A DNA stretch of 43,001 nt, from positions 1 to 43,001 of the IMG/VR virus record IMGVR_UViG_3300026825_000002; one strand, 5' to 3'. The notes beneath the pieces were generated by a model. The model worked only from the letters and a program-made list of their open reading frames with translations. It had not been told where the DNA came from and did not search any database. Positions 18,238-40,723 of this stretch are shown piece by piece (position 1 is the first letter of the stretch; every line of letters begins with the position of its first letter). Origin of the DNA: a virus. Lineage: Duplodnaviria; Caudoviricetes. The translations under genes and the position numbers were made by a program.

Positions 18238-18716
18238 TGGAAGAGCCTCCGCAGATAGCCGACGGCCGCGGCGACCAGCTCGGCGCGATCCTCGACCGAC
18301 AGGCCGATGTAGGGTCGGGCCGGCATGGTGACCTTGCGGGTCATGATGAACTGGTTGCCGATGCGGAAGGCGAGCGCACCGGCCGAGCGCGGCTTGATGG
18401 CGCCGCCGTGCTGGTGGATGGCCGCATAGACCAGGCCCGAGCCGACGATGGCCGCGTTGCCCGAGACGGCGTAGTCGATGGAGCGGGCGAGCGTGCCGGT
18501 GCGGTGGAGAATCGGCGTGCGCCGCTCGGCGTTCGGTTTCCAGGCCGAGCCGTCCGGTGCCGGCCCGCCCGAGATCAGCCGGTCGACCGTTTGTTCGCGG
18601 ATGAGCCGGGCGAGCGCTTCGAGCAGCGTCTCGCTTTGAAGCGGGTTCAAACGCGCGAGAACCGCCTCGATCGTGCCGAAGCCGGAGAGGTCGAGGCGGA
18701 CGGTCAGCGCGCTCAC
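18234..18716 (-). CDS. Virion morphogenesis protein (Mu gpG-like)
   Basis: APDGSAWKP, ILHRTGTLARSI, YAAIHQHGG, MPARPYIGLS. Confidence 0.93.
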   Translation of the reverse strand: MSALTVRLDLSGFGTIEAVLARLNPLQSETLLEALARLIREQTVDRLISGGPAPDGSAWKPNAERRTPILHRTGTLARSIDYAVSGNAAIVGSGLVYAAIHQHGGAIKPRSAGALAFRIGNQFIMTRKVTMPARPYIGLSVEDRAELVAAAVGYLRRLFQ

Positions 18717-19147
18717 AGCAGCCCCCCGCCGGTCGGCCAGCGCCGTTCGTCCGTGAAGAACGCCGCGCCGCTATCCGTCTCGGCCGAGTTGGGGCCGCCG
18801 CCGATGGAGATCTGCGCCGCCTCGAGTTCGGCGATATCGACCTTGCCGTCCGCCAGGGCCGTCAAAAAGGCGATGCGGATCTTGGCGCGCTTCTCGATCT
18901 CCTCGGACATGCGGTCGGCGGCCGGCGCCAGCTGCCAGCAGGCGAGGTCGATGGCGCACTGCTGGATGATGGCCGGGATGACCGGAAGCGGCAGCCGGTA
19001 CCGCTTGCGCAGGTACGGGTCGATCATGGCGGCAGCGGCCGTGATGGCGCGGCTGACCGCGACGTCGATGTCGACGTCGGCCGGCACGAGCGTCTCAAGG
19101 TGGCGCGCGCCGTAGATCGCCTCGATGTCCTGCCGGCTCGCGTACAC
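18713..19147 (-). CDS. Head-tail connector, Mu gp36/DUF1320 family
   Basis: MYASRQDI...IDPYLRKRYRLPL...DLACWQL. Confidence 0.9.
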   Translation of the reverse strand: MYASRQDIEAIYGARHLETLVPADVDIDVAVSRAITAAAAMIDPYLRKRYRLPLPVIPAIIQQCAIDLACWQLAPAADRMSEEIEKRAKIRIAFLTALADGKVDIAELEAAQISIGGGPNSAETDSGAAFFTDERRWPTGGGLL

Positions 19148-19324
19148 CGCAATACCTCCGCAATGGTGGGTGCCGGCTTTCCACCGGCTCGGCCGCTCCT
19201 CTCCCGGCTTGGTCCGCTCGATCCGCGTCGAGGCCGCGCCTACTCGGAACTCCCGCCCAGCGGCCCGGCCTTCACGCTCCGGTTTGTCCCGCTGCGTTGC
19301 CCGCGGTTCCTTTCGCTCGGGATC
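19148..19324 (-). ncRNA. Candidate structured RNA downstream of capsid genes
   Basis: 177-nt gap in an otherwise overlapping operon, with a chain of short hairpins carrying purine-rich loops. Confidence 0.35.
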
Positions 19325-19600
19325 TCAGTCTTCGTCGGGGTCGGGGTTCTTCGCCGGCCGCACAGTGAGCTGGGGGTCGGCCAGGATCGCTTCCCACTGC
19401 GCCTCGGTGAGATCGTCCAGGGCGAGCGGGGTGCCGGCATGGGCGAAGTCGATGCCGGCACGGCGCCGGCCCTCCTTGGCCACCGCCGACACGATCACAT
19501 GGAGGCCCTCGGGCTTGGTCGGGCCGATGGCCTCGGCGGGCTTTTGCGCCTTCTCGGCGCCGGCCGCCGGAGCCTGCTTGCTGTTGGGTTTCGCGCTCAT
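19325..19600 (-). CDS. HI1506-like protein (Mu gp35-like)
   Basis: EGRRRAGIDF...DDLTEAQWEAILADPQLTV. Confidence 0.85.
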   Translation of the reverse strand: MSAKPNSKQAPAAGAEKAQKPAEAIGPTKPEGLHVIVSAVAKEGRRRAGIDFAHAGTPLALDDLTEAQWEAILADPQLTVRPAKNPDPDED

Positions 19601-19642: not shown

Positions 19643-20536
19643 TCAGCCGAGCCAGGGCGCCACGACCAGCTCGACGCGGCCGTAATCGAGGTTCGACTCG
19701 CCGCCCGCGAGGTTCTGTTTCTTGACGATGGCCTCCGCCTTCGAGCGGTTGCTCGGGCCGACGAGCAGGACGTCGGGCGTGATGCTGAGCGGCGCGCCGT
19801 AGTCCGCCTTGAGGAGCGTCATCGCCGTGAAGGCGGCGGCGAAGTTCGCCGGCGTGAGATCGGCCTTCGAGCCGAAGGCCGTCTGCCAGAAGCCGAAGCC
19901 GCCCGTGTTGCGGCTGTCCGCCCCGTAGATGAACTCCTTCTTCATGAAGACGTTCGGATCATCCGGGTTGTCGAGCGCTGCGAACACCGGCGCCTGCCGG
20001 TTCTGGAAGATCAGCGGCTTCAGCGCCTTCCGGGTGTCGAGCAGGAACCACGGCTCGGCGGTGCCGGCCTGGACGTTCGAGACGGAAACGAATGAGCCGT
20101 TGGCGTCGAGAACCGGATGGTCCGTGTCGAAGAAGAACTGGCCGTCGAAGCAGTTGGTGGTGAACCCTTGCTTGAACAGGCTGAAGATCAGTTCGTCCGG
20201 CTGGCGGCCTGCGGCGTCGCCGAGCATGCCCATCAGAGGGCGATAGAGGCCATATCGATCGTCGAGGATCGAGTTGCGCCCGACCGAGACCGTGTCCTCC
20301 CAGTCCTCGTTGACGAGGCGGTAGCTCGAGTCGGCAACGTTCTTGATCTGGCGCTCGCCGATCCATTTGCGCATGCCGGGGATCTGGTTGAGCCACGGGT
20401 ACAGCTCCTCCGACGTGGTGGACGGCACCTCGGTCGCGAAGCGGCCCCACATGGGCTGCACTGCGCCGAGGCCCGCCTGAAAGTTGGCGCGGTAGCCCGT
20501 CGTGAGCGCCCGCAGGTTGGCCGAATTGATGTCCAT
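19643..20536 (-). CDS. Mu-like major capsid protein gpT
   Basis: VPSTTSEELYPWL...MRKWIGER, CFDGQFFFDTDHP, WFLLDTRKALKPLIFQNR. Confidence 0.97.
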   Translation of the reverse strand: MDINSANLRALTTGYRANFQAGLGAVQPMWGRFATEVPSTTSEELYPWLNQIPGMRKWIGERQIKNVADSSYRLVNEDWEDTVSVGRNSILDDRYGLYRPLMGMLGDAAGRQPDELIFSLFKQGFTTNCFDGQFFFDTDHPVLDANGSFVSVSNVQAGTAEPWFLLDTRKALKPLIFQNRQAPVFAALDNPDDPNVFMKKEFIYGADSRNTGGFGFWQTAFGSKADLTPANFAAAFTAMTLLKADYGAPLSITPDVLLVGPSNRSKAEAIVKKQNLAGGESNLDYGRVELVVAPWLG

Positions 20537-20558
20537 GGTCCGTCCTCACGATGAAGGG

Positions 20559-20633
20559 TGGTTGCGGGAGGTGGATTTGAACCACCGACCTCCGGGGTAT
20601 GAGCCCGGCGCGCTACCGCTGCGCTATCCCGCC
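20559..20633 (-). tRNA. tRNA-Met(CAT), initiator-like, encoded CCA
   Basis: GGCGGGA-TA-GCGC-AGCGGTA-GCGC-G-CCGGG-CTCATAC-CCCGG-AGGTC-GGTGG-TTCAAAT-CCACC-TCCCGCA-A-CCA: complete 75-nt cloverleaf, 1:72 mismatch, three G-C pairs in the anticodon stem. Confidence 0.93.
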
Positions 20634-20638
20634 GAAGC

Positions 20639-21040
20639 TCAGAGGGTCTCGACCCAGACGCCGGTGGGCTCGATGTCGAGCACCTTGCCGGCCCTGGACC
20701 GCGTGCCCGCCCCGTCCGTCTTGGCGACCGTCTCGTCGTCGACGACGTAGCAGTCGGCCAGCAGGTCGGCTTGGCCGATGGGATCCGCGGCGGCGTTCTT
20801 CCATTTGAAGACGCCGCGGCGAATGGTGATCGCCTTGGCGCCCGCGGCACCGTCGCTGTTGTCGACGGTTTCCTCGGCCCGGCCGGCCGCCGTCAGCTCC
20901 GCGGCGGTGGCGCCGGGGACCGCATGGCCGCCGTCGACGCACACGAGGGCGCCTTGCTGGATGACCGTGGCTGCGGCGACAGGGATGACCAGAAGATCAG
21001 GCGCACGCGTGATGGTGTTGCGGGGTTTGGCGAGGGGCAT
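20639..21040 (-). CDS. Capsid decoration/cement-like protein
   Basis: IPVAAATVIQQGALV...RRGVFKW...CYVVDDETV; between protease and capsid. Confidence 0.75.
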   Translation of the reverse strand: MPLAKPRNTITRAPDLLVIPVAAATVIQQGALVCVDGGHAVPGATAAELTAAGRAEETVDNSDGAAGAKAITIRRGVFKWKNAAADPIGQADLLADCYVVDDETVAKTDGAGTRSRAGKVLDIEPTGVWVETL

Positions 21041-21073: not shown

Positions 21074-21541
21074 TCAGACGCGGCGGGCAGCGAGGAACGC
21101 GGCAGGCTCGATGCCGAGCTTGGCGGCGATCTCCTTCTCGGCGTCGCTGAGCTGGCCCGCGGCGCCGGTGCTGGGATCGGCCGTCGCGGTCGCGGGATCC
21201 ACGCCGGGCGGAACGACCACGGGCATCGCGTCGATGGCCGCCTTCGTGGCGTCGTAGTTCGCTCTGGCGAGGGCGACATAGTGGTCGCGGGCGGCGGGGG
21301 CGATCTTGCCGGCCGTGACGGCCTCGTCGACCAGGGACGAGCAGCGGGCCGCCTCGGCGGCATCCCTGGCGGCCGCGATGGTTGCCTGCGCCTGGGCCAG
21401 CGCCGCCGCCGTCGCCTCGTGCTGTTCCTTGGGCACGTACTTGTCGGGATCGATGGCCGACAGGCGCGCGATGGCGCCCTTGGCATCGTCGAGGGTCGCG
21501 GTGTCGGCGAGGCCGAGCGCCGCCAGCAGCTCTTTCAGCAT
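21074..21541 (-). CDS. Scaffold protein Z from an internal in-frame start
   Basis: GGAGGA SD before in-frame ATG 21541 (MLKELLAALGL); matches the Mu I/Z arrangement. Confidence 0.7.
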   Translation of the reverse strand: MLKELLAALGLADTATLDDAKGAIARLSAIDPDKYVPKEQHEATAAALAQAQATIAAARDAAEAARCSSLVDEAVTAGKIAPAARDHYVALARANYDATKAAIDAMPVVVPPGVDPATATADPSTGAAGQLSDAEKEIAAKLGIEPAAFLAARRV

Positions 21542-22051
21542 TGGGTCCTCCAGATGAGCGGATGCGACGGCCGGCATGCCGAGCGCCGGCGAGGTGACGA
21601 GGGCGGCGCCCTTGAGGAGACGGGCCGTCATGCCGTCCTCCTCGCGCCAGAAGGTGGGTGAGATGTAGCGATAACGGCGTGCCTGGAGCGCCTCGACGGC
21701 ATCCGGCAGCCATTCGACACGGCCGAACAACCCCTCGGGGCGTGCCTCGACGGCGACGATCCAGCCACGCGCCGGCTTCGCGCCGAGCATCATCGTGAAC
21801 TCGGTCTCGTGGTCGAAGTCGATCGGCAGCTTCAGCCCGCCCGCCGTGAAGCCGGCGGCCAGCCGCTCGGGATCGAACGCAAAGACCCGTCCGTCCCGCG
21901 CCGTGACGCGACCGCGCGGCGTGAGCTGGATCCACTCCGGCAGCGTGACCTCGCCGTCCGCGGCGGCGGTGACAACCTCGAAGGCCACGCCGCCGGCGAT
22001 CAGGTCGGCCGGGAGAATTTCGTCACGGGGGGTTGCAGTTCGCTTCGGCAT
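21074..22051 (-). CDS. Mu-like prohead protease I
   Basis: PEWIQLTPRG, LPIDFDHE, ARGWI, YRYISPTF, AALVTSPAL. Confidence 0.95.
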   Translation of the reverse strand: MPKRTATPRDEILPADLIAGGVAFEVVTAAADGEVTLPEWIQLTPRGRVTARDGRVFAFDPERLAAGFTAGGLKLPIDFDHETEFTMMLGAKPARGWIVAVEARPEGLFGRVEWLPDAVEALQARRYRYISPTFWREEDGMTARLLKGAALVTSPALGMPAVASAHLEDPMLKELLAALGLADTATLDDAKGAIARLSAIDPDKYVPKEQHEATAAALAQAQATIAAARDAAEAARCSSLVDEAVTAGKIAPAARDHYVALARANYDATKAAIDAMPVVVPPGVDPATATADPSTGAAGQLSDAEKEIAAKLGIEPAAFLAARRV

Positions 22052-22057
22052 GAGGGC

Positions 22058-22107
22058 ACCATGGCGAAGCTGGCGGAACACAAGGCCCCGGACGCACGTC
22101 CGGGGCG
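22058..22107 (-). promoter_or_regulatory. Putative late promoter (Mu P_I equivalent)
   Basis: GGCCCCGGACGCACGTCCGGGGCG (22084-22107), 20-nt spacer, -10 CATGGT 6 nt before the protease ATG. Confidence 0.75.
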
Positions 22108-30089: not shown

Positions 30090-30698
30090 GTGGTCGACGC
30101 AAAGTGGCTTGACGCGATTAAGCTTCCGCTGCCGCATACGATAGCAATTGCTCTGGCATGTATTGCTCTCATCGGCGGCGATGCGATTGAGCTCTATGAC
30201 CTCCGCGACGCGGGAGGGTTTGTCAGGCCTATCATCATCATTGTGGGTGTGCTCTTCACGTTTCTATCGATAGCGGGGGGCATCAACATTTTGATGGAAC
30301 CGGTTAGGCAACGTCGACGGCAATCGCAATTGGCGATGCGGCGAGCGCTCCGAAAGAACGAGGAGGCGCAGGAGCGAGTTGCCGCACGCGCCAAAATCCT
30401 TGCCCGACTCGATCACCTTTCCGCGCAGGAGATAGCGATTGTCGCCAAAGCCCTGAACAGCGGCTCGCCCTCGATCTACACTTGGGTCCAAAATCCAGCG
30501 GTCGCGATGCTGATGGCAAAAGGCATGGTGTGGACACCCGGTGGGACACACCTTGGAGATCATTATCCTTTCTCATTCAATGATTTTGTTTGGGAGGAAC
30601 TGCAGCGCCGCAAGGCCGAGTTCCTCAATAAGCACGAGGAACATGAACGTGCCGAAGAGGAGCGCAAGAAAGCCGAAAGCCGCCGTCGAGGATGGTGA
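30090..30698 (+). CDS. sieB: Superinfection exclusion B-like membrane protein
   Basis: Two N-terminal TM helices, then LDHLSAQEIAIV...NPAVAMLMAKGMV...FVWEEL pattern typical of the SieB family; lower GC; antisense orientation. Confidence 0.65.
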   Translation: MVDAKWLDAIKLPLPHTIAIALACIALIGGDAIELYDLRDAGGFVRPIIIIVGVLFTFLSIAGGINILMEPVRQRRRQSQLAMRRALRKNEEAQERVAARAKILARLDHLSAQEIAIVAKALNSGSPSIYTWVQNPAVAMLMAKGMVWTPGGTHLGDHYPFSFNDFVWEELQRRKAEFLNKHEEHERAEEERKKAESRRRGW

Positions 30699-36295: not shown

Positions 36296-36912
36296 GGCGT
36301 CACCTCCTTCGCCTCGGGCTGGCCGAGCACGGTGTTGCTGTTCGGATCGAAGACGAGGTGCGTGCGCAGGATGCGCGGCGGCTCGGCGCCGAGATTGCGC
36401 ACGAAGTGGAACTCGGCCTCATGCCCGCGGCCGCCGCCCGCCTTGAGGCGCGCGAGCACGCCCACCTCGGCAAGGTGGCGGACGTACCGCTGCACGGTCG
36501 GCCGCGGGATGGCCCGTAGCTCGGTGCTGGCGGCTTCCTGCAACGCCGACACCGTGAAGCGCTTGAGCATCTTCATGGTGCGCCAGAGCGTTTCGGTGGC
36601 CGTCTCGGGAAAGGCGCTGCCGTCGCGGGCGAGCCGGGGCGCATCGCGCGAGGTGCGGGTGAGCCGGTAATGATAGCGGCCGTGGCGGATGCCGCGCACC
36701 GCCTCAACATGGTCGACCGCGAGATAGCCGGCCTTGACGAGGCGCTTCACATAGTCGGCGACGGTCGCCTCGTGGACATTCGTCTCGCCGACGATGTCGG
36801 CCAGGGTGAAGGTGCCTTGCTCGGCGGCGCGCTGGATGAGCTGCCAGAAGCCCGCATGGCCGCGCGGCACGCGAAGGTGCATGGCGACGTGTTCGACGAG
36901 AGGACGGCGCAT
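36292..36912 (-). CDS. Tandem winged-helix DNA-binding protein
   Basis: Two repeats of FT..L...TV..YV..L...G.L; follows MuB. Confidence 0.75.
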   Translation of the reverse strand: MRRPLVEHVAMHLRVPRGHAGFWQLIQRAAEQGTFTLADIVGETNVHEATVADYVKRLVKAGYLAVDHVEAVRGIRHGRYHYRLTRTSRDAPRLARDGSAFPETATETLWRTMKMLKRFTVSALQEAASTELRAIPRPTVQRYVRHLAEVGVLARLKAGGGRGHEAEFHFVRNLGAEPPRILRTHLVFDPNSNTVLGQPEAKEVTP

Positions 36913-37586
36913 TATGCGGCCCTCCCCAGGCGGCGGCTCTCCTCCAGCTCGCGGGCGAAGCGCACGACAATGCGCCGCGTGTTGCCGCGCTCGGCATCGA
37001 CGATCTGCGCGAGGCGGGCGTCGTCGATGTCCAGCTCGGGGCAGTAGCTGCGGGCGAGCAGGCGGGCGTCCTCGACGTCGCAGGGCACGGCCTGGACGAA
37101 CTCGAGCATGCGGTTGTGGACCCGCTCGAAGGCCTCCAGCTGGCCCGGCAGGGTCTCCTCGCCGATCAGGATGACCGGGGCGAGGCTCTTGTCGTGCAGC
37201 TCGCGCAGCAGGTCGACGAAGCGCTTCTGCGCGATGAAGTGCGCCTCGTCGACGATGAGCGGGCGCATCGGATCGGCCGCGAGCACCATGATGGCCTGCT
37301 CGACCATGTCGGCGATGGCGCCGCGCGGGCGCTGCCCCAGCTCGACCAGGATGGAGCGCAGGAGGCTCTTGGCGGTCGTGAACTGCCCCACCTCGACATA
37401 GGTGGCGCGGGTGACGTTGGCCCCGTAGGTGGCCGCCTTGGTCTTGCCGAGGCCGGAGCGCCCGAAGAAACAGGCCATGCCCGGCAGGTCCGGCGCGCGG
37501 TTGATCACGCGCTTGATCAGGCCGTTGAACGCGGCGACGTTCTTGAGGGGAGCCGGCTTCTTGACCGTTTGTGCGTCGACTGTCAT
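36912..37586 (-). CDS. MuB-like AAA+ transposition ATPase
   Basis: Walker A GRSGLGKT, Walker B LIVDEAH, VILIGEE; GAGGA SD before ATG 37586. Confidence 0.93.
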   Translation of the reverse strand: MTVDAQTVKKPAPLKNVAAFNGLIKRVINRAPDLPGMACFFGRSGLGKTKAATYGANVTRATYVEVGQFTTAKSLLRSILVELGQRPRGAIADMVEQAIMVLAADPMRPLIVDEAHFIAQKRFVDLLRELHDKSLAPVILIGEETLPGQLEAFERVHNRMLEFVQAVPCDVEDARLLARSYCPELDIDDARLAQIVDAERGNTRRIVVRFARELEESRRLGRAA

Positions 37587-37607
37587 GCTTTCCTCGGTTC
37601 GACTTTC

Positions 37608-37637
37608 GGCCCGGCCTTCGTGCCGGGCCTTCTTCTT
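37608..37637 (+). terminator. Intrinsic terminator oriented antisense to the early operon
   Basis: GGCCCGGC-CTTCGT-GCCGGGCC followed by TTCTTCTT, between A and B. Confidence 0.5.
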
Positions 37638-37641
37638 GGGC

Positions 37642-39852
37642 TCACGCAAACAACCACTCGTCCCCGAAGTCCCGGTGGAGATCCTGGTGGGCGAGGTACT
37701 CGGCACTCGTCTGGTAGCGGCCGAGCCACAGCGCCTCGTCGGTCGAGACGCCCTGGCCGGCGGCAATCCGGCGCTCCAGTTCCACCGCGCGGCGGAAGCG
37801 GTGCTTCGGCTGCTCGGGGAAGGCTTTCACGGTGCTCTCAGGGGCCGGCACCGGAGCATCGGCCTCGGCCGCGGCGACCAGCTCGGCGTGGATGGCGGCA
37901 TCGTCCGGCCGCAGCTCGACCGGGCGCGCGTGACGCGGCGTCATCGCCTCGATCGCCGCCTCGATCTGCGGCGTGGTGTGCTCGACGCGCGGCTTCGGCA
38001 GCTCGACCAGCTTGCCGGCGTCGCGGGCGGCCTGCCGCATGACGAGATCGGCAAGGCGCGGCCCCTTGGCGAGCTTCTTCACCTCGGCCTTCACGGGCGC
38101 CATGCGCTCGTCGATGATGCGCTTCTGCTCGGCCTTGACCGCGCGCACCGCGGCCGCCGGATCGATGCCGGCGAGGACGGGACAGGTCGCCTCGCCGAGG
38201 AATTCGTCGCCCTCGGGCGTGAACAGATATGCGCGGCCGAGGTCGGCGGGATCCATGCGCACGAGCACGCGGGTCTCGGGCATGAGATGCGGCACGAGAT
38301 ACCAGTTGTGATCGATGCGGATGCCCGACTTGCTGACGGTGCGTATGCCGTCACGGCCGGCGATCGGCATGAGCAGGATGTCGAGGGCGCGCTCGTCGAC
38401 GGTGCGGATGGCCTCGCGCGACGCGCTGACCAGCTCGAAGGGCGTGCGCTTGCCGAGTCCGGCGTGCGGCTCGTGCATGTACATGGCCTCGACCCAGCGG
38501 TCGCATTCGCGCTGCAGGTCGGCGCCGGTCAGCGCTACGCAGAACGTCTCGGCCGGATCCTCGCCCAGGCGGGCGGCGAAGGCCTTGCGCTGCTCGATCT
38601 GCTTCCGGTCGGCCACGTCATGGCCGATGAAGCCTTCCAGCAGCGGCATGAGGCCGCGCTGCAGGGTGCCGATGGCGCGCTCGACGAAGGCCTTTTCCTC
38701 GGGCGTGAACGGCTGGGAATAGGACACGTCGATGCCGAGGTTCGCCATCAGCATCGTCGTCTGCCGGGCCGTGAAATCGCTGCCGTTGTCGGTCTTCACC
38801 CGATCCGGCGCGCCCCAGGCGAGGACGGTGCGCCGCATCAGGGCACAGACGGCGGCGGCGCGCGGCGTCCGGCTGACCGAGATCAGCAGGCGACGCGAAT
38901 AGACGTCGATCGCGGCATAGATCGAGTGTCGCCCGTCCGAGCACAGCACGTCGGCCGGCGAGGCGTCGATCATCCAGAGCTGGTTGAGGCGCGTGACGTG
39001 CCGGTAGGAGTTGCGGCCCGATGCGCGATACTTCGACTTGAAGGCGTCCGGGTTGGTGAGGGCTGTCAGCTCGACCTTCAGCTCTTCCTTCCATCGGCCG
39101 ATCGCCCACTGGATGGTGCGCAGAGGCGGCACGGGAACGCGGCGGATCTCGCCGTGCCGTGAAACGAGGTCGAGCCCGCCTTCAAACTGCGCTTCAAGCG
39201 CGCGCCGGAGGTGCTTCGCGGTGAGGTGCGGCTGCTTGACCAGGAGCGCCAGCAGGAAGGTCTTCACCTCGCCGCCGTTGGCCTGATCGAGAACGCCGCA
39301 GCCCTTCCGCGCTGCCGCCTTGTCGACGCCGAGGCGCTTGGTGCGCCCGTCGCGGCGGGCTGCCCGCCACCGAAACAGCGTCGAGGGCGTGATCGAGCGG
39401 ACATGGCGCCGGATCCAGTCCGCGACTTCGATGCGGTCGGAATTGTAGAGGTCGCAGAAGTGCTGATCCGCGAGGCGCTTGGTGACGCCCGACTCGGCAA
39501 TGTAGCGATCGAGGATCTGCAGAAGCGCTAGGCGCGCGTCCCGTGCTTCCGCTACCCGGCCGCACAGGTCCGAAGTCTCGGGCTCTGCCGGTGACGGCGA
39601 GGCCTGCAGGACAACAGGCACCTCGACGGCCTGAAGGTGGCGGCCGAGATAGGCGGCGCGGGCCTCGGCCGGCAGCGCTTCGAGCGGGTACTCACGCCCG
39701 CCGCCGCGGCCGATGCGGTCGCGGGAGGGCCAGCCTTCGCGGGCAGCCATTTTACGGACGCCACGTTCGGTTTCGGGCAGCGACGGGAGCTGCGCCTCGG
39801 CAAGTTCGCTCGCCGTCAGCCATTGTTTCACCGGGGAGATAGGAGCGTTCAC
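37642..39852 (-). CDS. MuA-like DDE transposase
   Basis: N-terminal Mu DNA-binding domain (WLTASELA...GRGGGREY); IDASPAD, KTDNGSDF, KAFVER catalytic triad; GTG 39852 overlaps the upstream TGA (alternative start 39867). Confidence 0.96.
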   Translation of the reverse strand: MNAPISPVKQWLTASELAEAQLPSLPETERGVRKMAAREGWPSRDRIGRGGGREYPLEALPAEARAAYLGRHLQAVEVPVVLQASPSPAEPETSDLCGRVAEARDARLALLQILDRYIAESGVTKRLADQHFCDLYNSDRIEVADWIRRHVRSITPSTLFRWRAARRDGRTKRLGVDKAAARKGCGVLDQANGGEVKTFLLALLVKQPHLTAKHLRRALEAQFEGGLDLVSRHGEIRRVPVPPLRTIQWAIGRWKEELKVELTALTNPDAFKSKYRASGRNSYRHVTRLNQLWMIDASPADVLCSDGRHSIYAAIDVYSRRLLISVSRTPRAAAVCALMRRTVLAWGAPDRVKTDNGSDFTARQTTMLMANLGIDVSYSQPFTPEEKAFVERAIGTLQRGLMPLLEGFIGHDVADRKQIEQRKAFAARLGEDPAETFCVALTGADLQRECDRWVEAMYMHEPHAGLGKRTPFELVSASREAIRTVDERALDILLMPIAGRDGIRTVSKSGIRIDHNWYLVPHLMPETRVLVRMDPADLGRAYLFTPEGDEFLGEATCPVLAGIDPAAAVRAVKAEQKRIIDERMAPVKAEVKKLAKGPRLADLVMRQAARDAGKLVELPKPRVEHTTPQIEAAIEAMTPRHARPVELRPDDAAIHAELVAAAEADAPVPAPESTVKAFPEQPKHRFRRAVELERRIAAGQGVSTDEALWLGRYQTSAEYLAHQDLHRDFGDEWLFA

Positions 39853-40316
39853 CGGCGGGCCCTCCACTCCGCATCGGCGGCAGCGATTTGGCGCTCGAGT
39901 TCGTCCTTCAGCTCCTTGGCGCGCTCCCGTTTGAGCAGAGCTTCGTAGCGGCTGGGCACAGCAATGAGAGCAGCTGCATCGAGCAGGGCATTAAGAGGCC
40001 GCTCGTCGCCGGTGACGGACACAAGAGCAATGAGGCGCGTGGCCGAGATCTGATGCGTGCCGGCCTTGGCTTGGCTGGCATAGGCTTCCAGCATCGACAC
40101 CGGGACATCCTCACCGAGAAATTCCGACATGCGCCGCGCAACGACCTCTCGGGAGAGGCCGCAGTCGCGCAGGCACTGCGACACGGCGCGCGACAGGCGG
40201 GCGGCAAGAGTGCCAGCCCGCACGACCTCCTCGCCGAACCGCGCCACGACAGGCGACGGCGCGAAGTCGCGGAAGAGGTCGAGCGTGTTGGTGTCGCGCT
40301 GCCGGGCCATGGTCAC
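39849..40316 (-). CDS. Hypothetical DNA-binding protein upstream of transposase
   Basis: LSREVVARRMSEFLGEDV..SMLEAYAS; coupled to MuA; alternative start ATG 40310. Confidence 0.78.
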   Translation of the reverse strand: MTMARQRDTNTLDLFRDFAPSPVVARFGEEVVRAGTLAARLSRAVSQCLRDCGLSREVVARRMSEFLGEDVPVSMLEAYASQAKAGTHQISATRLIALVSVTGDERPLNALLDAAALIAVPSRYEALLKRERAKELKDELERQIAAADAEWRARR

Positions 40317-40723
40317 CCTCGCCCGAAAGGGGCCGGGCGGGCGGAACCCGCCCGGCCAAGGCTAGGGAGGAAACGCCCATAGAGGGCACGGGTTAGCCCC
40401 GCCACCGACCACTGACGCAGGTCGCGCGCTCCCCCTACACTCGACGCGTCACCAAACGAGTCGGGGAAAGACCGAATGTCGAATGCTGAAGAACGAACAA
40501 AACGTCTGTTGGAGCGCCGGGCCGCGGCGCTGGAAAAGGGCGTGCAATACGCCTTCTGGCGCCACCGCATCGCGGATGCGGTGGTCACCCTCGTCGAGCG
40601 TGACGGCGACGTTTCGCTAGACGCTCTGATGGCGGAATTGGCGGCCGCTGCGGAGCGCAGCGAGCCGGTAGTGGTCGACGGCGTCCAACTTGACCCTGCC
40701 GGGAAATCCTTAGCGGCCGCCAT
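40313..40723 (-). CDS. Possible bridge ORF across antisense gene and sRNA
   Basis: GGAG SD, ATG 40723 inside the end of the upstream gene, GTGA overlap at its 3' end. Confidence 0.25.
   Translation of the reverse strand: MAAAKDFPAGSSWTPSTTTGSLRSAAAANSAIRASSETSPSRSTRVTTASAMRWRQKAYCTPFSSAAARRSNRRFVRSSAFDIRSFPDSFGDASSVGGARDLRQWSVAGLTRALYGRFLPSLGRAGSARPAPFGRG
40326..40390 (-). ncRNA. MmgR/suhB (alpha-r8)-like small RNA
   Basis: GCCC-TCTAT-GGGC hairpin, GTTTCCTCCCTAG core, 11-bp terminator stem GGCCGGGCGGG/CCCGCCCGGCC then CCTTT. Confidence 0.7.

Follow-up and report, generated by a model that had tools for sequence, protein, structure and literature searches.

According to the accessible parts of the papers cited here, solitary tRNA-Met/fMet genes occur in Sinorhizobium prophages (PMC12429752; PMC10460002), and tRNA dosage from a strong promoter rescues a phage from retron Eco7, with function of the tRNA in translation being needed (PMC11555353). 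Initiator tRNA is targeted by toxins such as VapC and AtaT (PMC7180214); BoVapC1 of Bosea cleaves tRNAfMet, extra metZWV tRNAfMet genes giving partial rescue, and the VapC cut falls between the anticodon stem and the loop (PMC8522696). Within the initiator, the open 1:72 position is described as an initiator feature and the main formylation element and A11:U24 as a secondary determinant, an engineered initiator being functional without A11:U24 (PMC8576571), and a Cm32-A38 pair has been reported in which A38 contributes to the initiator-specific loop shape (PMC2528185).

The locus analysed here lies in the window, the whole stretch of 43,001 nucleotides under study, which represents a 43-kb Mu-like prophage. 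Its genes, largely encoded on the minus strand, include MuA/MuB-type, I protease, gpT, gp36 and contractile-tail genes. The gpT of the window is 100% identical to that of a contig titled Chelatococcus caeni DSM 103737 (L045), and the tRNA, including C38, was unaltered in contigs of runs X5 and X7, which belong to studies other than those flagged as the source. One run recorded as RNA and one presumed RNA run contained only 0.05-0.06 of the sequence words. The single tRNA detected by ARAGORN across the whole 43 kb is a Met(CAT) on the minus strand, and its score against RF00005 (66.2 bits, E 2.3e-12, cut-off 29) places it among the tRNAs of Rfam. Two positions beside gpT are distinguished below, namely slot 1, the gap between the cement gene and gpT where the tRNA of the window resides, and slot 2, between gpT and the gp36/neck genes. 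The features concerned are as follows.

20559..20633, minus strand: initiator-type tRNA-Met(CAT), 75 nt, with encoded CCA (ARAGORN; Rfam; covariation)
20633 (G1), 20563 (A72), 20623 (C11), 20611 (G24) and 20597 (C38), minus strand: bases of the tRNA (by position numbering)
20605..20609, minus strand: G26-G30 of the tRNA, the site of replacement or insertion in near-identical strains and relatives
20543..20547, minus strand: putative Shine-Dalgarno-like GAGGA of gpT, within the 22-nt spacer past the CCA
19643..20536, minus strand: major head protein gpT (PF10124, E 1.6e-113; PHROG 371)
20639..21040, minus strand: virion structural protein, probable cement/decoration (PHROG 1731; Atlas lead)
21074..22081, minus strand: Mu-like I protease/scaffold (PF10123; PHROG 328; ORF as listed, true start perhaps later)
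19325..19600, minus strand: small HI1506/FluMu_N-type gene 3' of gpT (PF17891), whose stop codon marks slot 2
18713..19147, minus strand: gp36 head-tail adaptor (PF07030), the downstream border of slot 2
36912-37766, minus strand: MuB-type transposition gene (PHROG 296 and 310, cited jointly for the MuB/MuA pair)
37642-39867, minus strand: MuA-type transposition gene (same joint citation)

The stop of the upstream ORF (20639) is followed by 5 nt, the tRNA, 22 nt and the gpT ATG (20536), confirming the original prediction of a full tRNA-Met(CAT) on the strand of gpT with these gaps. The tRNA exhibits G1xA72, G2:C71, C3:G70, A73, an encoded CCA, G29-G31 paired with C39-C41, a TTCAAAT loop, C11:G24 and C38, with position 17 absent and A7:U66 in the acceptor stem; the base-level claims made beforehand (1:72 mismatch, G29-G31 pairs, TTCAAAT, G1, C11:G24 and C38) all check out. 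The designation as initiator-type, based on the 1x72 mismatch, the three G:C pairs and the initiator acceptor stem, also holds, as does the view of the gene as cargo of a transposable phage rather than an att site, considering the MuA/MuB-type genes, no integrase among the 56 ORFs scanned against PHROGs and no duplicated part of the tRNA 3' end in the window. The upstream neighbour, previously called a decoration gene, is a virion structural protein by its PHROG, whereas its decoration label comes solely from an Atlas lead (a DUF2190 cluster name, and Phage_cement_2 on 12% of one cluster). No strong Watson-Crick pair is formed at 1:72 and three G:C pairs lie at the base of the anticodon stem next to CAU, as in initiators, but C11:G24 stands in place of A11:U24 and C32 is accompanied by C38 rather than A38. 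C11:G24 is elongator-like and was counted in favour of a non-initiator identity. These features mark it as an initiator-type tRNA-Met, for which charging, formylation and use in initiation are predicted; no statement on the formylation of G1xA72 relative to C1xA72 was found in the literature. A GC-rich 12-mer in the central part of the tRNA has a second occurrence in the window. A scan for sigma70-like promoters found none near the tRNA, although it is weak for Mu-type late promoters, because these are activator-dependent. Other features observed in the window include a match to the Rfam suhB/MmgR sRNA in the early region (40317-40394, minus strand, 48.4 bits, cut-off 41), a perfect 9-bp GC-rich hairpin between gpF and the protease gene (22085-22106), near the expected head promoter, and a SieB-like superinfection exclusion gene on the opposite strand (30090-30698, plus strand; PF14163).

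The host genome contains three canonical initiator matches, and the two examined in full (L200 and L204) carry C1, A11:U24, A29:U41 and A38. The phage and host tRNAs share CAU, G2:C71, C3:G70, the unpaired 1x72, A73, G30:C40, G31:C39, the TTCAAAT loop and CCA, whereas the phage tRNA differs by G1, A7:U66, C11:G24, a shorter D loop, G29:C41 in place of the host A29:U41, and C38. In total, 15 of the 75 positions differ, which rules out a recent copy of the host initiator gene. A wider reference was obtained with a permissive pattern from 111 proteobacterial genomes, where 150 of 153 matches were listed and 149 of them lie outside this prophage; as judged by eye, U24, C32, U33, A38 and C39 are present in all 149 of these listed matches. 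The D-arm pattern with C11:G24 was detected in 3 of 401 host-family genomes, two of the matches lying in Mu-like head operons and one directly before a terminase small subunit gene.

Related phages were surveyed for this slot, a check proposed in the original prediction, and a tRNA sharing this isotype was found to recur beside gpT. IMG/VR is estimated to contain about 5,300 gpT stretches. The survey comprised 398 gpT loci, forming 269 clusters at 95% capsid DNA identity, with 2,430 kb scanned in the interval between -10 and +11 kb relative to the start of gpT. The loci are best matches to the capsid of the window or of a carrier, and the seed alignments included carriers, so that carrier prevalence may be inflated; the isotype and position patterns are not sampling artefacts, because ARAGORN is blind to both. 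ARAGORN made 18 calls over the 269 clusters, 15 of which are Met(CAT), the other three being a Met-like tRNA with a broken loop (L228), an 'Arg' whose loop is of UUCG type (L063) and an antisense call regarded as junk. The 17 calls on the sense strand all fall between -118 and +2139 of the gpT ATG, either just before gpT or between gpT and gp36, and the region holding them (-200 to +2200) accounts for 25% of the scanned bases. Five of the 15 intact copies occupy slot 1 and ten occupy slot 2, where nine directly follow a gene ending in an HI1506-like segment. The tRNA starts 4-11 nt past a stop codon in 14 of the 15 copies, the exception being L219, where a structured RNA (motif A, described below) lies in between. 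An intact copy was present in 13 of the 168 clusters covering both slots, and 6 more clusters hold broken copies, four of which (L003, L047, L031 and L501) came from a profile search; more than 90% of relatives are without the tRNA. In the near-complete carrier prophages it is the sole tRNA (5/5), and none of six cultured Mu-like phages checked carries such a tRNA. Two further gpT-like genes are present in the host genome (G001:C3:670538-671422 and G001:C4:109051-109938), with no tRNA within 1.5 kb.

Differential conservation was observed along the tRNA. When 15 phage copies were aligned with 2 from the host (the L447 row trimmed by one base), two-sided changes were seen in 13 of 21 stem pairs and 94.9% of cells are paired, compared with 46-52% in slid controls. 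G2:C71, G4:C69, G5:C68, G10:C25, G30:C40 and CAU are invariant, and a standard pair at 1:72 is seen in one of 16 rows (U:A). Since the stems covary, CAU is fixed and 1:72 stays open, selection keeps a methionine tRNA with an open 1:72. Among the phage copies, G30:C40 is present in 15/15, G31:C39 in 13/15 and G29:C41 in only 5/15, and CCA is encoded in 14/15. The first base of the 15 carriers is G (6), C (4), A (3) or U (2), so that C1 is absent from 11, and C11:G24 is found in 7 and A11:U24 is absent from 10; as G1 is the commonest first base and C11:G24 occurs in 7/15, both represent family features and not private oddities of the window. In the loop, positions 32/33/38/39 deviate in 8 of 15 phage copies versus none of the 149 listed host initiators (Fisher p 6e-10, with rows that are not independent), and C38 is carried by 5 of the 15 phage copies but by none of the same 149. 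A38 is kept in 10 of 15, including L009 and L049, the two closest intact relatives of the window, and since these closest relatives have A38, resistance is not a family rule. C38 is best viewed as a recurrent option, part of the change being perhaps drift, because 10/15 keep A38 and 10/15 are without A11:U24. A FastTree capsid tree was scored for 209 rows, leaving aside 50 clusters whose slots were incompletely covered and 10 whose capsids were short or broken; its 21 carriers require 17 changes, and the 5 carriers of C38 require 5. Such scattered carriers fit repeated gain, loss or recombination.

Insertions and broken copies were also observed. In runs X9 and X6, near-identical strains have 63 other letters in place of G26-G30, X6 having both forms, and in the Bosea-type prophages L003 and L047 (about 2866-2976) C25 and G31, the bases bordering that site, are separated by a 41-nt stretch containing a hairpin; both prophages have A38, and compensating changes are seen between the two. 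The 41-nt insert gave one match in 5 genomes, which was itself, ruling it out as a host repeat, and the expanded-tRNA pattern matched one stretch of viral DNA, the contig of L003 itself. A decay series is formed by L501 (4411-4521), L228, L063 (4105-4177), L031 and L006-L008, with a variable-arm hairpin insert, swapped anticodon loops, loss of the T arm and residual small hairpins at the tRNA site.

Beyond the Mu-like gpT loci, the D-arm pattern was found in at least 119 stretches of viral DNA (about 700 estimated). Among the matches listed, 130 distinct copies comprise 76 of eukaryote type (A54 loop) and 54 of bacterial type, and a change at 38/39 among these matches was seen in 14 of the 54 bacterial-type versus none of the 76 eukaryote-type copies, all of which have A38-C39. 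The eukaryote-type initiators with the same D-arm (L077-L195) are in many cases on giant-virus (GVMAG) contigs, often in tandem. Of the 16 bacterial-type, GC-rich viral loci that have long flanks, 12 were annotated on either side of the tRNA, as was L211. Slot 2 is repeated with another capsid family in L094 (capsid, small gene, tRNA, adaptor-like gene, neck); the tRNA lies 3' of a head morphogenesis gene in L135, upstream of terminase in L078, L082 and L211, near replication and integrase genes in L108 and L127, and 5' of a capsid gene in L148, where the acceptor is paired and elongator-like; and the remaining five annotated viral loci showed no telling flank match. The cultured phage PfAn1 has a copy with C33 and C38 between rusA and an HNH gene, C38 being found in L211 as well. 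Phages with other capsid families also place such a tRNA in the head or packaging module (L094, L135, L078, L082 and L211).

Slot 2 harbors other structured RNAs, one of which is found in the window.

19217..19327, minus strand: motif B, a conserved structured RNA in slot 2, with no Rfam match

Motif B occurs in 12 clusters (the window, L005, L025, L029, L047, L049, L060, L061, L062, L221, L233 and L447), 3' of the HI1506-like gene. Two blocks that never vary, AGCGAAA and GAGTAGGC, loop-E-like in character, lie on either side of a covarying stem; 9 of 12 tested pairs covary in a structure derived from the same alignment, and its 5' end possibly pairs with the third hairpin loop. Motif A was observed in 15 clusters, namely L004 (4206-4304), L047 (4230-4331), L219, L228, L051 and 10 more, sometimes in tandem with motif B (L047) or no more than about 10 nt from the tRNA (L051, L228 and L219). 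Both motifs are always on the sense strand at +930 to +1700, and they are present in 8 of 20 tRNA-bearing clusters versus 15 of 208 others, the seeds having come from carriers and their kin. Neither motif matched Rfam in the loci scanned, and short partial matches alone (E up to 10) led to the rejection of host rrn-region or 5S remnants as their source. Mu-gpT-DE (RF03012) is presumably a structured RNA downstream of Mu-like gpT, in the slot-2 region, and unlike the feature of the window it is not a tRNA; motifs A and B appear to be other RNAs, because its 49-bit cut-off was reached by none of five records (best 13.1), the window and carriers of both motifs among them. Self-cleaving ribozymes were considered as candidate occupants of the gpT slots, but none was found in either slot when 60 loci were compared with Rfam, and a literature search returned nothing on them; a twister-sister match in L047 (17.4 bits, E 0.35) is at chance level, and a regex ribozyme scan, which returned 0 and then 5 unconvincing matches, is insensitive, as it missed two type II hammerhead ribozymes in L265 (159-238 and 421-479, minus strand) that lie on the strand opposite to gpT, roughly 2 kb upstream of it.

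Five readings of the tRNA were weighed, the first of which is a replacement initiator, expressed late and opposing toxins aimed at tRNAfMet through its dosage and sometimes through a changed loop, followed by plain supplement of the initiator pool, mRNA punctuation, a decoy, and another isotype or att site. The replacement initiator is put forward tentatively, with a chance somewhat short of even, and is supported by the non-random isotype and position, the selection on tRNA function, the repeated loop deviation, the similar placement in phages with other capsid families and the toxin and dosage precedents of PMC8522696 and PMC11555353. The tRNA and the capsid genes would probably share one transcript that starts at the late head promoter, given the tight spacing and no sigma70-like promoter found nearby, and RNase P and 3' processing would release it for charging and formylation. 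It could then replace the host tRNAfMet once toxins cut or block it, sustaining capsid synthesis, the protection arising mainly from the dosage of a very abundant late transcript. The VapC cut in tRNAfMet is numbered 38/39, and C38 at this stem-loop junction may add protection in about one third of the lineages, including the window. Cutting of the head mRNA would be a by-product, as any matured copy must cut it. The loop of the window tRNA is unlike that of the host at or near this cut site (C38 versus A38), as expected for nuclease evasion. On the other hand, the deviation is not confined to the loop, so that general drift may explain part of it, and enteric phages generally avoid encoding tRNA-fMet, according to the accessible part of PMC10264068, which counts against a replacement initiator, as do the small share of carriers (13 of 168 fully covered clusters) and the six cultured Mu-like phages without the tRNA. 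The host genome G001 yielded 9 PIN-domain hits, which count in favour, although none was over the fMet-specific VapC cut-off, and none of five host genomes passed NF010285, the best score of the host being 50.5 bits versus 143. No report of C38 blocking VapC and none of an anti-phage system cutting tRNAfMet upon capsid sensing were found in the literature. A phage-encoded tRNase paired with a resistant tRNA was rejected, with no PIN, HEPN or GNAT domain among the ORFs scanned (49 with Pfam and 56 with PHROGs, of 278 listed). The counter-defence function originally proposed is hence favoured in part: the non-random isotype and position, C38 in five lineages versus 0/149 listed host initiators and the BoVapC1 precedent (PMC8522696, as far as its accessible part goes) support it, whereas A38 in L009 and L049, A38 in 10/15 carriers and no host match over the NF010285 cut-off weigh against it.

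The next reading, in which no toxin takes part and the tRNA adds to an initiator pool that becomes limiting while capsid is made in bulk, its deviations being tolerated drift, is doubtful, with an appreciable chance of being right. It explains the same pattern of isotype and slot, is consistent with the A38 kept by 10 of 15 carriers and with the many proteobacterial assemblies showing only 1-2 initiator matches (a count that collapsed repeats may lower), and finds a parallel in the Sinorhizobium prophages, where solitary tRNA-Met/fMet genes are common in the accessible part of PMC12429752. However, it predicts neither the recurrence of C38 (five lineages, L211 and PfAn1) nor the rapid gain and loss among close relatives.

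An unlikely role is that of an mRNA punctuation mark, in which the cloverleaf acts as an RNase P/3'-processing signal that splits the head transcript and sets the dosage of high-copy head versus low-copy neck products. The tight spacing past stop codons, the two fixed slots flanking gpT, the two other structured RNAs hosted by slot 2 (15 and 12 clusters) and the retention of the acceptor stem and T arm with a disrupted anticodon arm in four of six broken copies (L003, L047, L228 and L063) and in the 63-nt variant all point in this direction. Yet any tRNA would serve such a purpose, and 15 of 15 copies keep CAU and no 1:72 G-C pair despite diverging stems; moreover, a cut in slot 1 and one in slot 2 would fall on different sides of gpT, the tRNA is absent from more than 90% of relatives, and no ribozyme at the Rfam cut-off was present in either slot among the 60 loci scanned. 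Punctuation as the selected function, the second idea of the original prediction, is therefore weakened by the CAU in 15/15 intact copies and by the 10/15 that lie after gpT. Masking of the gpT ribosome site by the 3' strand of the tRNA was rejected, as the alternative fold gains only 0.8 kcal/mol in the window and is absent in the other four slot-1 loci.

Quite improbable is a decoy, an RNA unused in translation that soaks up a nuclease or acetyltransferase recognising tRNAfMet. This requires initiator-like shape and abundance only, and it tolerates copies without A11:U24 and C1, perhaps also the expanded forms, but a working tRNA agrees better with the CCA in 14 of 15 copies and with the conservation of the elements for MetRS and formyltransferase, and function in translation was needed in the retron case, as given in the accessible part of PMC11555353. 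Least credible is a tRNA that is not an initiator (an elongator Met, or a lysidine-modified Ile2 reading AUA) or that serves as an att site or in lysogeny compensation: CAU by itself leaves the isotype unfixed and prophages of Paracoccus frequently have their att sites in tRNA-Met genes (PMC6536676, accessible part), but the 1x72 mismatch, the three G:C pairs and the initiator acceptor stem speak for an initiator, Ile2 or codon compensation is ruled out by these identity elements and the near-absence of AUA (missing from gpT, terL, the cement gene and the HI1506-like gene, with a single codon in each of portal, MuA and tape measure), an att site or inserted element is ruled out by the transposase, the scan for integrases and the unduplicated 3' end, and the tRNA lies mid-genome in a phage whose host keeps three initiator matches of its own.

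A broader and more speculative extension of the replacement initiator, which is rather doubtful, holds that an undescribed proteobacterial anti-phage system destroys initiator tRNA late, perhaps by sensing head proteins, and that the capsid operon serves Mu-like and other tailed phages as a counter-defence cassette based on RNA, swapping escape-variant initiators (C38, U32-C38 and U39), expanded tRNA-like forms and two new structured RNAs. If the counter-defence reading is true, tRNAfMet would be a target of late-acting anti-phage immunity and the phage tRNA could serve as bait for the system. Why small phages keep one tRNA is a long-standing question, and the fixed isotype, the capsid-side position and the loop changes allow a sharp test on a single gene, in a prophage of 43 kb from an alphaproteobacterium in culture, for which natural alleles are at hand (present, absent, A38, C38 and broken). 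In addition, natural initiator-type tRNAs without C1 and A11:U24 test the textbook identity rules.

Counter-defence tRNAs and solitary Met/fMet tRNAs are already known, while the capsid-side initiator slot in transposable phages appears to be undescribed; no description of an initiator-type tRNA fixed beside a transposable-phage capsid gene was found in the open-access literature, subscription papers and supplements being outside this search. Like the tRNA of the window, the defence-evading phage tRNAs in the accessible parts of PMC10264068 and PMC11555353 are phage-borne, with an anticodon loop unlike that of the host and a plausible dosage effect of strong transcription, whereas they are elongators of tRNA-rich phages, such as the T5-like SP15 and mycobacteriophages, and the present one is a solitary initiator-type tRNA in the head operon of a transposable prophage. 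Similarly, the phiLM21-like Sinorhizobium prophages share one Met(CAU) tRNA per temperate phage that does not match the integration site, but they are integrase phages, and in the accessible part of PMC12429752 their tRNAs are tabulated without analysis of slot, identity elements or function.
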